A DNA stretch of 8,059 bases from a virus (Duplodnaviria > Heunggongvirae > Uroviricota > Caudoviricetes): IMG/VR virus record IMGVR_UViG_2778261541_000003; one strand, written 5' to 3'. This document shows positions 3,819 through 8,059 of the stretch, in pieces. Positions within the stretch are counted from its first letter, which is position 1. The number at the start of each line of letters is the position of its first letter. The notes beneath the pieces were generated by a model that had not been told where the DNA came from, made no database searches, and saw only the letters and a list, made by a program, of their open reading frames with translations. The position numbers and the translations under genes are program-made.

Positions 3819-3874
3819 ATCGCGCCTCCTTTACCTTTAAGGTAATATTACGCGAATCTACATCACATCGCCAA
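3819..3874 (-). promoter_or_regulatory. Candidate sigma70 promoter with palindromic operator for the 3651-3818 / 3187-3630 operon
   Basis: Minus strand: -35 TTGGCG (rc of 3869-3874), 18-bp spacer, -10 TAATAT (rc of 3845-3850), immediately followed by perfect 15-bp palindrome TTACCTTTAAGGTAA (3831-3845) over the predicted start site, then AGGAGG. Confidence 0.5.
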
Positions 3875-3879
3875 TGATT

Positions 3880-3903
3880 ATTTTAAAGGCACATCCCTGT
3901 GCC
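3880..3903 (-). terminator. Intrinsic terminator downstream of the second antirepressor (inside the repeat)
   Basis: Hairpin at 3888-3903 (GGCACA-loop-TGTGCC) followed on the minus strand by TTTAAAATAAT. Confidence 0.5.
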
Positions 3904-4141
3904 GCCGCCCGTCAGAAGAATCCTGCTTTGTCGCTGATGTACTCCGCGTGCGTCTGGATATCACGCAGGCATTTGCTCACACCGACGATGTAGCAGAACA
4001 TGGTGGTCAGCTCCGCCGCCGCGCCCGATACATCGTGCCCGTCGTCCTGTAACTGGTTAAGCAGATTCATCAGCAGTGAGTTCTCCGTCAGGCCGAGAAC
4101 ACCAGACGGCGAGTGAATCAGGCTGCGGTAGCCGGGCTTCA
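3882..4141. repeat. Inverted repeat copy B (partner of 2157-2418)
   Basis: Reverse complement matches copy A; covers the last ~77 codons of the second antirepressor plus its terminator hairpin. Confidence 0.9.
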
Positions 4142-4568
4142 GTGGGGCGCTGTATTCTTTTTTGTCTTCCAGCTTGATCGCCTCCATAATGGCGGGCATG
4201 AAGCCTGACAAGACCTTCTCCACTTTTGTTTCTTGTTGTCTTAAACGTTTCTCGCATTCAATGAAGTAGCGTCGCACCTGGCGACCTTTTTCGTTACGCT
4301 CGACCATCGCCAGCTCTTTGGCTGTATCAAGGGTGAGGTGGTACTCTTTGCGGTTGTGGCCGCCTCTACCAGATGTTTGCTTTCCCAAATTGGAAAGCAA
4401 AATATAGTCTTGATTTTCAATGAATTCGTATTCTGATATGCGATTTGTAATCCATGCTGCAAACACCTTTTTAACACCTAAAAAAGCGTGCAGATCGCGG
4501 GCATTACAAAGTAGGGCTGTTTCGTTAGATATAGTGCCGTTGAATACGGGGATGAGTTGAGCGTTCAT
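3912..4568 (-). CDS. Phage antirepressor, second copy: different N-terminal domain (Bro-N/ORF6N/Rha-like, tentative) fused to the same C-terminal domain as Ant
   Basis: 218-aa ORF; ATG at 4568..4566 with GGAGA SD (rc of 4576-4580). N-terminal part (...[33 protein letters not shown]...[32 protein letters not shown]) resembles phage antirepressor N-terminal families. C-terminal 77 aa are ~97% identical to Ant (1443-2387). Confidence 0.88.
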
Positions 4569-4596
4569 GATGGCGTCTCCACTTAGCGAATTACAT

Positions 4597-4804
4597 CACC
4601 ACCGCTGAGACCAATCAGATGGTGGTGAACTGAACGGAGTTGGTCTTACCGGCCTAAGTGGTACCGGCGTCCTTTCGGACCCCCATTCAGCCCACCATAA
4701 TTCTGGCATGACTGTGCTATACGCATAAAAAAACCACGTCTGGCGTGGTATGCGCCACTTAGTAATCCGGGAGACCAATCCCGGCACTGGATTTTGCCAG
4801 TGCC
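4597..4804 (-). other. Hairpin-rich untranslated leader upstream of the second antirepressor
   Basis: H1 at 4597-4627: CACCACC-g-CTGA-[gaccaa]-TCAG-at-GGTGGTG. H4 at 4767-4784: CCGGGA-[gaccaa]-TCCCGG, same hexaloop. H5 at 4783-4804: GGCACTGG-attttg-CCAGTGCC. No convincing ORF in this ~400 bp (track ORF 4596..4928 rejected). Confidence 0.45.
4726..4749 (-). terminator. Candidate intrinsic terminator or attenuator within the leader (minus strand)
   Basis: Minus-strand RNA ACCACG-CCAGA-CGUGGU followed by UUUUUUU (plus-strand A-run 4727-4733). Sits ~160 nt upstream of the second antirepressor start codon. Confidence 0.45.
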
Positions 4805-4839
4805 CGATTACTATGGCACAAGAGGAGTGCAATGTAAAT

Positions 4840-4948
4840 TTACCGCAAAGGTAATGATAAACGCGAAGAAATATTAAAATCAACCGTATTTGGTTGATTG
4901 CGTTTAACGCTTGATCACCTGAAAGCAAGATATTACCTTTAAGGTAAT
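4840..4948. promoter_or_regulatory. Two palindromic TTACC-N5-GGTAA operator-like sites
   Basis: Site 1 TTACC-gcaaa-GGTAA at 4840-4854. Site 2 is a perfect 17-bp palindrome ATTACCTTTAAGGTAAT at 4932-4948. Centres are ~94 bp apart. Site 2 lies ~20 bp upstream of the start of ORF 4968-5696 and at the distal end of the minus-strand leader. Confidence 0.5.
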
Positions 4949-4967
4949 GTTATTGTGAGGAAAAGCA

Positions 4968-5696
4968 ATGGAAGTTTTCTGGATAGTTGTTGGTGTGGTT
5001 GCGGTGATTATTTACGTTATCAACCAGAACAAGACTAAGATCTCTGATCGTACGGTCGTTAATCATAACAAAACGATAAAGACCGAAGATGGGGAGATAA
5101 CGATTAATCGTACACAGGTGATAGAACACACCTCTACTCAGTTTCAAAAAACTGGAGGTAATGCGCCTAATATTTCCGCACCTCCTGCTTATGATAGTGC
5201 GGTAATCCAGACATATTATAAACAGCAGGAGTTAGCAAAAGAGAGGCAACTGATTCAGCCAAAGCCGTTTACAGCTGAGCTTCCACCTGGAGTGTCAACG
5301 CGTCCGGCATATCATGGAAGATTCCCTGGTGATGACATATCGTCTCAGTCATCTAAAAAAGCACCTCAGGCAGTATCAGAGCCAGCAAGAATACCTTCTG
5401 TATCGCCGCCAAAAGAAGAATCAGCTAACAGAGTTTCAAGTGGTAGCAAGCAGTGCTTGCGATGCAGAATAAACCTACCATATGAAAAATTCAGGAAATC
5501 GTCAAAAAATCCAGATGGATTGACTAAGTGGTGTGCAAGGTGTCTCGATGGCCCAAAGAATACACGCCATATGAAGTGGTGCCCAATTTGTAATGTCCGC
5601 AGAAAACGAACAAGCTTTTACCCTAATAATCAAAATGCGGATGGCTTAATGGCATGGTGCAAAACGTGCTGGGACGAGCACAAAGCGAAACGATAG
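4968..5696 (+). CDS. Membrane-anchored protein with Pro/Ser-rich linker and C-terminal tandem CxxC-N20-WCxxC (zinc-ribbon-like) motifs; function unknown
   Basis: 242-aa ORF; GAGG 7 nt upstream of ATG. N-terminal TM helix MEVFWIVVGVVAVIIYVI followed by NQNKTK (positive-inside rule suggests a cytoplasmic C-domain). Two Cys motifs: CLRCRINLPYEKFRKSSKNPDGLTKWCARC and CPICNVRRKRTSFYPNNQNADGLMAWCKTC. Terminator follows. Confidence 0.75.
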   Translation: MEVFWIVVGVVAVIIYVINQNKTKISDRTVVNHNKTIKTEDGEITINRTQVIEHTSTQFQKTGGNAPNISAPPAYDSAVIQTYYKQQELAKERQLIQPKPFTAELPPGVSTRPAYHGRFPGDDISSQSSKKAPQAVSEPARIPSVSPPKEESANRVSSGSKQCLRCRINLPYEKFRKSSKNPDGLTKWCARCLDGPKNTRHMKWCPICNVRRKRTSFYPNNQNADGLMAWCKTCWDEHKAKR

Positions 5697-5720
5697 GCCG
5701 CTCTTGCGGCCTTTAAATTT
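5696..5720 (+). terminator. Intrinsic terminator after the Cys-rich membrane protein gene
   Basis: GGCCGC-TCTT-GCGGCC (5696-5711) followed by TTTAAATTT; stem overlaps the stop codon TAG 5694-5696. Confidence 0.6.
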
Positions 5721-5976
5721 ACCGGGTTTGTTTTCGTAATTGTTCGGCACAATAGTCGAGATGTGTTTGCAGATCCCGCATAGACATCTGTGAGCTGGTG
5801 ACGTAGTTAATCAGTGCAGTCAGTTCGGCAAGTGGGCCATCGACATTAAATCCATCCTTATCGAGATCCCGGAGTAATTTCATCAAGTGCGATCCCTCCA
5901 CCAGTGACCTGACGCCTCCCGGCGTGTGAATCCTTTCGGTAAATCCGTCTTCCAGTGGATAGTGATACTGCTGCAT
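5719..5976 (-). CDS. Small stand-alone antirepressor C-terminal-domain protein (85 aa), candidate SOS-inducible mini-antirepressor
   Basis: ORF track 5719..5994 starts at TTG; in-frame ATG at 5976..5974 with GGAGA SD 7 nt upstream. PLEDGFTERIHTPGGVRSLVEGSHLMKLLRDLDKDGFNVDGPLAELTALINYVTSSQMSMRDLQTHLDY aligns over its length with the shared C-terminal domain of the two larger antirepressors ([69 protein letters not shown]). LexA box 20 bp upstream. Confidence 0.8.
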   Translation of the reverse strand: MQQYHYPLEDGFTERIHTPGGVRSLVEGSHLMKLLRDLDKDGFNVDGPLAELTALINYVTSSQMSMRDLQTHLDYCAEQLRKQTR

Positions 5977-5995
5977 CTTATCTTCTCCATGCAAT

Positions 5996-6015
5996 AACTG
6001 TATAAATATACAGTA
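5996..6015. promoter_or_regulatory. LexA (SOS) box
   Basis: AACTGTATAAATATACAGTA at 5996-6015 is CTGT-N8-ACAG with an AT-rich spacer, 18/20 match to the E. coli consensus TACTGTATATATATACAGTA. A TTGATA -35-like hexamer abuts it on the minus-strand upstream side. It lies 20 nt upstream of the 5976 start codon. Confidence 0.8.
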
Positions 6016-6051
6016 TCAAATAATTTGTTTGCTATCCAGCACGTTTTGCGA

Positions 6052-6118
6052 ATCACCTGAAAGGTAATATCTGTTCGTATTTATGGGTTATCTATCCATA
6101 TATGGTTTTTAAGGTAAT
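6052..6118 (+). promoter_or_regulatory. Repeated motifs upstream of the tail-fibre gene (ATCACCTGAAAG plus two AAGGTAAT half-sites)
   Basis: ATCACCTGAAAG-GTAATAT at 6052-6069 (TCACC-tgaaa-GGTAA, imperfect palindrome) and TTTTTAAGGTAATAG at 6106-6120. Same motif family as 3831-3845, 4840-4854 and 4932-4948. Confidence 0.4.
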
Positions 6119-6171
6119 AGAATAACCGGATATGCGGCGCAACGGGTGCTGCTACTATCTGGAGATTTAAC

Positions 6172-7941
6172 ATGACGGTCTCAACCGAAGTTGACCACAA
6201 CGAATACACAGGTAACGGTGTTACAACGGCATTCCCTTATACCTTCAGGATTTTCCAGAAATCTGATTTAGTAGTGCAGGTTGTTGACCTGAACGAGAAC
6301 ATCACAGAGCTGATTCTTGATACTGATTACATAGTCACTGGTGCGGGAGGGTATAACGGCGGCAATGTAATTCTGTCGAAGGCGTTGGCTAACGGTTATC
6401 AGATTTCTATATCAAGAGAGCTACCGGTTACGCAGGATACCGATCTGCGCAACCAGGGTAAGTTCTTCGCTGAGGTGCATGAAGACGCATTCGATAAACT
6501 GACGATGCTGATCCAGCAGGTTCGCAGTTGGTTTGCCTTGGCGCTGCGCAAGCCATCAACCATCGCTAACTGGTACGACGCGCTGGGGAATTACATTCGC
6601 AACCTGCGCGACCCACGAGACCCGCAGGATGCTGCCACTAAAAATTATGTAGACACGATTAGTAACAACAACTATCTGCACACGTTAAGGGTTCCAGAGT
6701 CATTTACGCGGCAACTCCCTCCTGCTGCAGAACGTGCAAATATGATCCATGCATATGATTATGCAGGTGAGTCCATTATGGTCTTGCCTGAGAGCGGTAG
6801 TGCAGCAGATGTTCTGTTATTGCTGGCGCAACCTGACGGGCTTAAGAGGATTGGCACAAAAGTTAATTACGGTATACCGGTTGGATCTACTTTAACCGAT
6901 GGCGTCACTTTTTCTTTTGATAAGGATAAAGGTTGGCTGAGAATTGGTGGTGCCGATCTCCTACCACTTGACGATGAAAAGAACTTCTGGAGAGGCTTGC
7001 CTACACCGAGAAATTCATGGTGTAACCCGGCTCTTATCGGTGATTACTCAGTATCTTTTAACAGAAACGGTGCGTCATTCGCGGTATACGCCACAACTTT
7101 CGGGCATGACTGCGTTACGTACGGCGCGGCATCTATTGCCGGTGGTGCTGGTTCTGCCACTGGGGACCCAGATCATATTACCTCACCAAATGCTGAGGGG
7201 TACTGCTCTTTTGCATTTGGGAAAAATGTCATTGCTCTTGGAGCAAAATCTGCCGCATTCTGTGAAGAAACGGAAGCGCTTTCAAGGGCGGCTTTTGCAA
7301 CAGGTTATTATACACAAGCCAGACCGGGATACACTACAGACCCCGGCGGGGTTGCAAGTGATGGCATTGGTGCGGCGGCCATTGGATATCGAACTCGCGC
7401 GGCAGGAGATGGCTCTTTTGCTGTAGGTAAGAATATTCAGGCTTATGGTGGTTCGATTGCGATCGGGTGCGGCACTGATGAAGATAACCCAGCAGTCAAT
7501 CCACATAAAGACTCAGTGATGCTGTTTGCAAAATCGCTTATTCCAGGTATATCCGTTGTACCTGGTGGCGGTGGGCCGGAGGAACCATCGCGTGTAGGGG
7601 GGCACACAAAATACCCTAAAGAAATAGTGGATGTAGTACTGGAGGGAGGGGGCCGCGCAGCCATCAGAATACCAGGGATAGGAACTGGTACGATCTTGCT
7701 GCAAGGGACAGATAACGACGGCAATGCACTTTCTATCGCGTCGCTTGAATGGACAAGCGGAAACGGAGGTAGTGCTGTTGGTTCGTTGAAAATAAACATG
7801 AACAACGACGCACCATGCATTGAATTTCTGGAAGATGGCAAGGTGGTTTTGAAGAACGTAAAAACGTTTGAGGAGATAAACGGCGCCCCCGCGGGCACCA
7901 TTTATAAGGATGCTTCAAACTTCCTTAAAATTGTTGTTTAA
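6172..7941 (+). CDS. Tail fibre / tail spike protein: T7 gp17-like N-terminal adaptor domain with Gly/Ala-rich repeat-containing C-terminal region
   Basis: 589-aa ORF; GGAGA 7 nt upstream of ATG. N-terminus (EYTGNGVTTAFPYTFRIFQKSDLVVQVVD...YIRNLRDPRDPQDAATKNYVD) resembles the conserved N-terminal domain of T7 gp17-type tail fibres. C-terminal half has repeats such as CSFAFGKNVIALGAKSAAF and GSFAVGKNIQAYGGSIAIG that resemble YadA-head/Hep_Hag-type beta-roll repeats. Confidence 0.88.
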   Translation: MTVSTEVDHNEYTGNGVTTAFPYTFRIFQKSDLVVQVVDLNENITELILDTDYIVTGAGGYNGGNVILSKALANGYQISISRELPVTQDTDLRNQGKFFAEVHEDAFDKLTMLIQQVRSWFALALRKPSTIANWYDALGNYIRNLRDPRDPQDAATKNYVDTISNNNYLHTLRVPESFTRQLPPAAERANMIHAYDYAGESIMVLPESGSAADVLLLLAQPDGLKRIGTKVNYGIPVGSTLTDGVTFSFDKDKGWLRIGGADLLPLDDEKNFWRGLPTPRNSWCNPALIGDYSVSFNRNGASFAVYATTFGHDCVTYGAASIAGGAGSATGDPDHITSPNAEGYCSFAFGKNVIALGAKSAAFCEETEALSRAAFATGYYTQARPGYTTDPGGVASDGIGAAAIGYRTRAAGDGSFAVGKNIQAYGGSIAIGCGTDEDNPAVNPHKDSVMLFAKSLIPGISVVPGGGGPEEPSRVGGHTKYPKEIVDVVLEGGGRAAIRIPGIGTGTILLQGTDNDGNALSIASLEWTSGNGGSAVGSLKINMNNDAPCIEFLEDGKVVLKNVKTFEEINGAPAGTIYKDASNFLKIVV

Positions 7942-8059
7942 GATAAGTCATCACCAAGGAAGGCGGTGAGTAGCGCCTCCGCTATTACTCTGTGACCAAA
8001 ATCAGGTGATGCTGCCAACTTACTGATTTAGTGTATGATGGTGTTTTTGAGGTGCTCCA

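Follow-up and report, generated by a model that had tools for sequence, protein, structure and literature searches.

What kind of element is a 12-nt word that occurs twice in the intergenic DNA of a phage, each time shortly ahead of a GGTAAT motif, with a shortened form of it beyond the tail-fibre gene? The question is raised by an 8,059-nt stretch of caudoviricete DNA, IMG/VR record IMGVR_UViG_2778261541_000003 (hereafter the window, meaning the whole of that stretch), in which ATCACCTGAAAG is found exactly on the + strand at 4914-4925 (copy 1) and 6052-6063 (copy 2), each upstream of a GGTAAT (at 4943-4948 and 6063-6068, respectively), and the 9-mer ATCACCTGA is found on the - strand at 8002-8010. 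The original prediction, which located these occurrences correctly, took them for a second repeated element beside the GGTAA sites, serving as a junction or linker where phage modules are exchanged and possibly belonging to the same operator system. We consider it about 80% probable that no such independent element exists, and that the copies are instead part of an operator for a Rep-type repressor, the -35/spacer sequence of a promoter and the end of an insertion sequence, IS1:

4914-4925, + strand: copy 1, lying across the -35 hexamer (final 3 nt) and the 17-bp spacer (initial 9 nt) of the predicted promoter of a gene termed ORF-242
6052-6068: predicted Rep operator ATCACCTGAAAGGTAAT, a 17-bp palindrome that holds copy 2 and lies in the ant-tailspike interval
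8002-8010, - strand: the 9-mer "third copy", composed of TCA from the phage flank and GGTGAT, the IS1 terminal hexamer

Copy 2 and the probable tailspike operator

Copy 2 lies in the intergenic region between an antirepressor gene and the tailspike gene, whose landmarks are as follows:

5719-5976, - strand: ant, a small antirepressor gene of the SPC32H type (PDB 5D50 chain E), with a product of 85 aa counted from the ATG at 5976
5998-6013: predicted LexA (SOS) box CTGTATAAATATACAG upstream of ant, assigned from the consensus and established knowledge
6172-7941, + strand: tailspike or tail-fibre gene, with a conserved N-terminal head-binding domain

The 12 nt of copy 2 comprise a left half-site ATCACC (a one-base variant of ATTACC), a 5-bp spacer and the first G of the palindrome at 6052-6068, which departs from ATTACC-N5-GGTAAT by 1 mismatch and scores 20.4 bits with a position weight matrix trained on epsilon15, phiV10 and TL-2011b only (training range 12.8-25.4 bits). 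The GenBank record of epsilon15 (AY150271.2) has seven protein_bind features labelled "repressor", all of them ATTACC-N5-GGTAAT, and the one upstream of its tailspike gene, ATTACCTGTAAGGTAAT (19895-19911), aligns column for column with 6052-6068. The same position is occupied in nearly all relatives. From 80 loci fetched via the tailspike N-terminal domain we obtained 70 distinct upstream regions, and in 69 of these the operator stands about 120 nt before the tailspike start, with a left half of ATTACC (45) or ATCACC (24), a right half of GGTAAT (67 of the 69) and any of 13 different spacers. In a column-wise profile of this upstream region the two halves are conserved and the middle is variable, and conservation is also seen at the SOS box and at two more blocks; at position 6054, T is the consensus base and the C of the window the minority allele. 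Position 6052-6068 is thus homologous to an annotated repressor site and shows the conserved halves and free spacer of an operator, and copy 2 reads as the left 12 nt of a probable Rep operator.

Because copy 2 is part of an intact operator, its apparent fusion with GTAAT is not the product of a deletion. The prediction that some 17 bp had been lost relative to the 4914 copy has the polarity reversed: the compact form is the ancestral operator, present at the tailspike position in epsilon15, phiV10, TL-2011b and all but one of the distinct relatives. The suggestion that the repeat belongs to the GGTAAT operator system therefore holds for the 6052 copy, whereas the interpretation that had been put foremost, a separate junction or linker element, is not supported.

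Neither a consensus scan nor hand inspection of both strands gave a convincing promoter (-35/-10 pair) around 6052; in the epsilon15 record an IHF site is annotated beside the tailspike operator. One of the two further conserved blocks is CTATCCAGCA (6033-6042). The other, TCCATAT..GGTTTTTAAGGTAATAGAAT (6096-6123), is highly conserved in 71 relatives including epsilon15; within it are an isolated GGTAAT half-site and, 49 nt ahead of the tailspike start, a TAGAAT hexamer, and it may be a tailspike promoter or activator site.

An operator family in the window and its relatives

The tailspike operator has four companions. Allowing at most one mismatch, ATTACC-N5-GGTAAT occurs 5 times in the window (2459, 3830, 4839, 4932 and 6052) against 0.015 expected, and the five sites score 19.0-25.4 bits; the next best position reaches 10.3 bits and is an IS1/phage chimera. 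The other four predicted operators are:

2459-2475: Rep operator ATTACCTCAAGGGTAAG upstream of ORF-210, 19.0 bits, with a cargo-swap junction at its edge
3830-3846: Rep operator TTTACCTTTAAGGTAAT heading leftward cargo genes, 23.0 bits, with a cargo-swap junction at its edge
4839-4855: Rep operator TTTACCGCAAAGGTAAT heading the leftward isrK-C4-antA unit, 20.6 bits
4932-4948: perfect Rep operator ATTACCTTTAAGGTAAT overlying the -10 hexamer of the ORF-242 promoter, 25.4 bits with no mismatch, higher than any other position of the window

The assignment of these sites to Rep comes from the relatives. In TL-2011b all 12 of 12 operators are intergenic, heading transcription units and flanking gp10 on both sides, and gp10 is a full-length homologue of the SPC32H repressor Rep (5D50_A, E = 6.6e-42); in phiV10 and epsilon15, as in TL-2011b, operators flank a 5D50_A-like repressor gene. 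The ATCACC half-site is found also at phiV10 24691 and in the operator ATCACCTTTAAGGTAAT of UTAK-6, an uninterrupted relative in which that operator lies upstream of holin genes, a different place from the third copy of the window.

Pairs of operators spaced 62 bp start to start, approximately six helical turns, occur in three genomes (epsilon15 32554/32616 and 35906/35968; TL-2011b 5171/5233 and 8226/8288; phiV10 31952/32014). This spacing points to both members of a pair being spanned by a single Rep tetramer on one face of the DNA. The closest pair in the window (4839/4932) is 93 bp apart.

Copy 1 and the predicted ORF-242 promoter

Copy 1 has a different context. The 17-mer that begins with it (4914-4930, ATCACCTGAAAGCAAGA) has 5 mismatches to the operator and scores -1.4 bits, its right half GCAAGA matching GGTAAT at 2 of 6 positions, and it is accordingly a half-site only. 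It overlaps the upstream elements of a cargo gene:

4911-4939, + strand: predicted sigma-70 promoter of ORF-242, with -35 TTGATC (4911-4916), a 17-bp spacer and -10 TACCTT (4934-4939)
4968-5696, + strand: ORF-242, cargo gene of an inserted module

The -35 agrees with the consensus at 4 of 6 positions and the -10 at 3 of 6 (T1, A2, T6), and the geometry is kept in homologues; the consensus scanner missed it because the -10 matches at 3 of 6 only. TACCTT sits within the left half of the perfect operator at 4932-4948. Among 66 loci fetched via ORF-242, the close relatives (>=92% amino acid identity) have the whole promoter block unchanged, the 12-mer included. As the first 40 nt of the coding sequence are as invariant as the block at 4909-4942, this conservation does not discriminate extra selection on the 12-mer. 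Added purifying selection on the 12-mer among close relatives is accordingly not supported, the word being no more conserved than the promoter and the start of the coding sequence.

More distant homologues separate the two components. At 50-63% identity, the arrangement TTGAnn-17 bp-TAnnnT recurs about 60 nt before the start codon (loci L141-146, L151, L148/150 and L149), and most of these homologues retain an operator-like palindrome, which spans the -10 at -33 to -40. Its sequence varies by lineage, being ATTACC..GGTAAT in L141-146, GTTACC..GGTGAT in L151 and ATTAACCTACTGGGTTAAT in L148/L150, where the half-sites are ATTAACC..GGTTAAT and lie about 30-50 nt before the start of the ORF-242 homologue; L149 keeps the hexamers and has no scored palindrome, and L140/L153 keep the operator and have no recognisable -35. 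The 17-bp spacer, which holds 9 of the 12 bases of the 12-mer, differs in each lineage, and the 12-mer is absent from the diverged homologues that keep the promoter and an operator. Comparative evidence supports the reading of copy 1 as -35/spacer sequence of a promoter whose -10 would be occluded by Rep, and the promoters of L148 and L150 appear to have been re-tuned to another resident repressor. A search of 5.8 billion proteins returned no ORF-242 homologues of intermediate divergence, between 97% and 63% identity, and the species-representative genomes contained one homologue, at 63%. Ahead of the -35, L140-146 and L153 also have a perfect palindrome, TGTGACATGTCACA.

The ORF-242 module as an insertion

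ORF-242 encodes a protein with an apparently hydrophobic N-terminus and a Cys-rich C-terminus, as read from its sequence. A Pfam search found no significant family for it and only a weak, below-cutoff match to Stc1, and its homologues form 33 clusters in Enterobacterales, all annotated "hypothetical". The gene is absent from phiV10, epsilon15 and UTAK-6. In phiV10, the equivalent of the operator at 4839-4855 is followed 41 bp on by the 3' end of ant; at least 26 other relatives have an "empty site" like this one, with operator-to-ant gaps of about 25-41 bp, and in one relative the slot is filled by another cargo, of 1,068 bp. These comparisons identify approximately 4856-5718 as an inserted module, in which a hairpin (4878-4899) precedes the 12-mer and the perfect operator at 4932-4948, and ORF-242 is followed by a terminator (5695-5712); its left junction falls immediately to the right of the operator at 4839-4855. 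A leftward promoter-like sequence reported by the promoter scan, TTGATT-18-TATCAT (4883-4854), abuts that operator; in the empty-site relatives TTGCAA-17-TATATT, read by eye, is found in its place.

An 11-mer direct repeat, TAAATTTACCG, flanks the module at 4835-4845 and 5714-5724. Its left copy is part of the operator at 4839-4855, its right copy lies just 3' of ant, past the terminator, and the repeat may be a trace of an insertion or recombination event. By coordinate comparison, in loci L142 and L068 the ORF-242 homologue occupies another part of the prophage and is encoded on the other strand from the tailspike gene, again with its own operator-overlapped promoter.

The third copy and the IS1 ends

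The third copy straddles the right-hand limit of the phage DNA, and insertion-sequence DNA lies at that end of the window and probably at the other:

8005-8059, + strand: IS1 left end (left inverted repeat, IRL, and leader, up to the insA start)
1-55, + strand: probable right end of another IS1, phage homology starting at 56

Identity to an unrelated IS1 copy in CP136018 begins exactly at GGTGATGCTGCC (8005), the coding sequence of the IS1 family transposase starts there at the base after the equivalent of 8059, and 4,959 E. coli genomes together hold 8005-8059 about 72,000 times. Identity up to the very end, a contiguous transposase gene and high copy number mark the hexamer as the tip of an IS1 terminal inverted repeat, and since IS1 identity starts at 8005, six of the nine bases of the third copy belong to IS1. 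What had been listed as a further copy of the element downstream of the tail-fibre gene is therefore an IS1 end and not a phage repeat. The bare 9-mer ATCACCTGA also occurs at further scattered positions in the TL-2011b, phiV10 and epsilon15 genomes. An IS1 end to the left of 8005, to which many high-coverage matches pointed, was considered and rejected: alignment to the unrelated copy and a second search identified these as chance matches in an A-rich flank. Compared with known IS1 terminal inverted repeats, 8005-8059 is identical to the left end and has nothing unusual about it.

The IS1 end at 8005-8059 was verified by search, whereas 1-55 is presumably the right end of another IS1. TL-2011b reads ...atcagcat/aataatgtaat across the left junction of the window (marked by the stroke), which confirms a junction with phage DNA there, and the operator-like match at 50-66 is a chimera of insertion-sequence and phage bases. 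The other IS1 terminal hexamer is GGTAAT; that IS1 terminal hexamers equal operator half-sites is a coincidence.

By its sequence, the window is a piece of an epsilon15/phiV10/TL-2011b-like (Uetakevirus-type) podovirus prophage with an IS1 copy at its right and probably another at its left. Phage or prophage homology begins at 56 and is over by about 7970, and the 8,059-nt window as a whole has no match in complete E. coli genomes or PLSDB plasmids. The 7.95-kb prophage fragment is bounded by a probable IS1 right end at the left of the window and an IS1 left end at the right, in direct orientation.

Chance, recombination and the link between the two + copies

How surprising is the identity of copies 1 and 2? 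The expectation of zero (0.00) for this 12-mer is valid solely for that word, which was picked after the fact. Exact direct repeats of 12 nt or more (maximal ones) number 4 in the window, where shuffled sequences average 2.05 (P(>=1) = 0.89); among the 4 is an unrelated and plainly meaningless 12-mer, CGCTCTTGCGGC, repeated at 106 and 5699, and the window contains 22 ATYACC/GGTRAT hexamers, many within coding sequences. The 12-mer pair is unusual solely by its location, both members being intergenic and both adjoining operators. Smith-Waterman alignment of 4856-4967 against 6014-6171 detected no similarity past the 12 nt; a duplication or gene-conversion tract linking the two contexts was entertained and rejected, as the alignment returned the 12-mer alone. 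Both sites could be compared on the same locus in 44 distinct ORF-242-bearing relatives. The 12-mer is present at both in 11 of these, and in the other 33 the left half of the tailspike operator is ATTACC (18 with ATTACCTGAAAG, 13 with ATTACCCGAAAG and two with a sequence of their own each), so that the 12/12 match in the window depends on one polymorphism; phiV10 has the 12-mer at its tailspike operator and is without ORF-242. On these sequences the two + copies are independent of one another, with no co-variation among relatives.

Several observations nevertheless weigh against resolving the repeat into unrelated parts. Both + copies lie in the 1155 nt of intergenic DNA, where 0.05 shared 12-mers are expected, and the local alignment of their surroundings reaches P ~0.006 against shuffles. 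The ATCACC at 4914 stands exactly 18 bp from the perfect operator at 4932-4948, and complete tandem operators in this 18-bp register are found upstream of the terminase gene in TL-2011b (11589/11607), phiV10 (86/104) and epsilon15 (11/29), with a 17-bp register at epsilon15 33340/33357. Moreover, ACCTGAAAG is also part of a third real operator, CTTACCTGAAAGGTAAT (TL-2011b 14818, phiV10 3251), and 43 close relatives have an identical block at 4909-4942 and variable linkers to the left of it. Finally, the basis for Rep binding to the operators is GenBank annotation and comparative patterns, and the 8-kb window contains no rep gene, so that its operators may be orphaned in the host.

The recombination linker that was first proposed can be judged from the mosaic breakpoints, which we mapped by aligning the window to 149 unique loci with BLAST and recording where the alignments stopped, excluding ends within 15 nt of the end of a locus. 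The copies are indeed both intergenic in a highly mosaic region, and the ORF-242 module is missing from phiV10, epsilon15 and UTAK-6, being an insertion whose slot holds the 1,068-bp cargo in one relative. However, breakpoints cluster at about 4570-4599 (antirepressor gene exchange), at 4860-4869 and 5690-5729 (the ORF-242 slot), and at 6510 and 6650, the junction of the tailspike head-binding and receptor domains; no cluster falls at 4914-4925 or 6052-6063 in the 149 loci. Cargo-swap junctions abut the 17-bp operators instead (2472-2474, 3830 and about 4856-4869): homology to L003, L005, L158 and L159 stops at 2472-2474, the edge of the operator at 2459-2475, and homology to TL-2011b and L156 begins exactly at 3830, the edge of that at 3830-3846. 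This coincidence of cargo junctions with the edges of related operators is a point in favour of a linker, and it means that the junction idea fits the GGTAAT operator sites and not ATCACCTGAAAG. The left junction of the module lies some 50-60 bp to the left of the 12-mer, and it is the 11-mer TAAATTTACCG that flanks the insertion; in addition, the ant-tailspike intergenic region is collinear in all relatives, similarity ends with the 12 nt, and neither TL-2011b nor phiV10 has the 12-mer at any other place in its genome. A role for the 12-mer in module exchange is, on this evidence, extremely improbable.

Two further explanations concern the 12/12 identity itself. It could be wholly accidental, an operator and the spacer of an unrelated promoter having come to share 12 bases without any tie of history or function, as the two or so exact 12-mer direct repeats expected per window, of which another, meaningless one exists, would allow; the identity is just 10-11/12 in most relatives, because their operator has ATTACC, and the spacers of homologous promoters differ by lineage. 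The proximity of both copies to operators (P ~0.006), the tandem register of the half-site and the recurrence of ACCTGAAAG in a third operator make so complete an accident rather unlikely, if still the more credible of the two. The other explanation gives copy 1 a function: 4914-4930 would serve as an auxiliary half-operator, placed in tandem register (18 bp) and left over as the outer half of a "1.5-site" operator, through which a tetrameric, non-canonically binding Rep seated at 4932-4948 would also contact the -35 region, clamp both promoter hexamers and repress ORF-242 more tightly. The full tandem operators at 17-18-bp offsets in epsilon15, TL-2011b and phiV10 provide a precedent; the ATCACC variant is accepted in half-sites elsewhere (24 of the 69 tailspike sites, UTAK-6 and phiV10 24691); the 12 nt equal the half-site and spacer of a real operator; 4909-4942 does not vary among close relatives; and, at second hand in the part of PMC9638917 that summarises the work, SPC32H Rep binds DNA as a tetramer. 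Against this stand the poor right half, the absence of the half-site from diverged homologues that keep promoter and operator, and the abundance of such hexamers within coding sequences; orphan half-sites beside operators number about 3 of about 20 distinct operators by our own count, which against a null of 5% each is no significant enrichment, and the invariance is common to the adjacent start of the coding sequence and may merely reflect recent ancestry. We regard a working auxiliary half-site as improbable. If true, a "1.5-site" operator would be an asymmetric architecture not described for this repressor family, and a small detail on how tetrameric Rep engages promoters. The preferred reading of the identity is that copy 1 is an operator-like half, perhaps a relic, or that the match is a coincidence sharpened by one polymorphism, with no shared functional motif.

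Predicted regulation and comparison with known systems

The arrangement suggests an SOS-responsive switch of the following kind. Rep would bind the 17-bp palindromes and occlude promoters at the heads of transcription units, and at ORF-242, where the operator covers the -10, it would block the promoter; the operator at 6052-6068 may control either the ant or the tailspike promoter. Upon DNA damage, LexA would be inactivated and leave the SOS box, Ant would be made, and by disassembling Rep it would open the operator-covered promoters, that of ORF-242 included. The Ant product matches PDB 5D50 chain E, the "Anti-repressor protein" of SPC32H crystallised with its repressor, at E = 1.9e-46, and the halves of the LexA box (CTGT and ACAG) are conserved through 71 sequences. 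In the summary of the SPC32H work given in PMC9638917, Ant is described as breaking the Rep tetramer.

The repressor sites of epsilon15 are the nearest equivalent of the operators. They have the same 17-bp form, ATTACC-N5-GGTAAT, are scattered, heading transcription units and also standing to either side of the repressor gene, and include the tailspike site that is positionally homologous to 6052-6068; they appear to be computational annotations. The window differs in having ATCACC and the spacer TGAAA where epsilon15 has TGTAA, and in having no repressor gene. The epsilon15 genome is said to have been described by Kropinski and colleagues in 2007. The Rep/Ant/LexA antirepression switch of SPC32H (PDB 5D50) was reportedly worked out by Kim and Ryu in 2013 and by Kim and colleagues in 2016. 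The window resembles it in having a close Ant homologue behind a LexA box, and TL-2011b in having a full-length Rep homologue flanked by the same operators; the window, however, is an IS1-bounded fragment without rep, and the likeness is one of Rep/Ant homology. The paper on ZX5 gives no data on operators.

Phage P1 offers a more remote parallel. Its C1 repressor acts through many 17-bp operators dispersed over the genome, one of which heads the c4-ant (immI) operon, much as the operator at 4839-4855 lies upstream of isrK-C4-antA. The P1 operators, however, lack symmetry and are not known to resemble these in sequence, and C1 is not known to be related to the helix-turn-helix protein Rep; by analogy, then, the window operators would be similar in their working only and are not members of the P1 C1 family. 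The ORF-242 module in turn recalls the "morons" of phages, which Juhala and colleagues reportedly defined in 2000 as autonomous promoter-gene-terminator insertions. It has its own predicted promoter and its terminator (5695-5712), is present or absent between the same two flanks, and yields its slot to other cargo. Classic morons are expressed from the prophage, whereas the -10 of ORF-242 lies within a perfect repressor operator, and ORF-242 is therefore predicted to be off in the lysogen.

The operator family was already annotated in epsilon15 and the Rep/Ant/LexA switch already described for SPC32H, and the window adds instances only. Tracing the supposed repeat to three ordinary features is of little consequence except for annotation. 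The prophage fragment gains an operator map (2459, 3830, 4839, 4932 and 6052), cargo cassettes of epsilon15-like prophages are seen to be swapped at Rep-operator edges, and the -10 of the ORF-242 promoter proves to be matched to the operator of the resident phage.

Other features of the window

The remaining genes lie to the left of the ORF-242 module:

651-1112, - strand: Arc-domain protein
1203-2387: small open reading frame (Arc-like in the TL-2011b annotation), followed by the sar RNA and a P22-type Ant gene
1374-1441: sar RNA
1443-2387: P22_AR_N-type antirepressor gene
3912-4568, - strand: AntA-type antirepressor gene (AntA Pfam match)
4618-4816, - strand: isrK, c4-a1b1 and C4 antisense RNA genes ahead of the AntA-type gene (Rfam)

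The Rfam scores are 67.7 bits for isrK, 61.2 for C4 and 39.9 for c4-a1b1, the last being below its own gathering score of 46.7 bits. Three distinct antirepressor systems thus follow one another: a P22 immI-like unit at 1126-2387 (Arc-domain gene, small Arc-like reading frame, sar RNA and Ant), a P1 immI-like unit at 3912-4816 (isrK, c4-a1b1, C4 RNA and the AntA-type gene), and the SPC32H-type Ant under LexA control at 5719-6013. In the tailspike gene, receptor domains are swapped at about 6510 and about 6650.

A 264-nt inverted repeat, 97% complementary, joins 2154-2417 and 3882-4145, and its arms are the common C-terminal parts of two different antirepressor genes, the P22_AR_N-type gene (1443-2387) and the AntA-type gene (3912-4568). 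Between the arms, relatives differ in their cargo (YafO toxin, DUF4760 and others), and the intervening segment is flipped in E. coli ETEC4085 (L157) with respect to the window; it looks like a recombination-driven invertible or exchangeable cassette.

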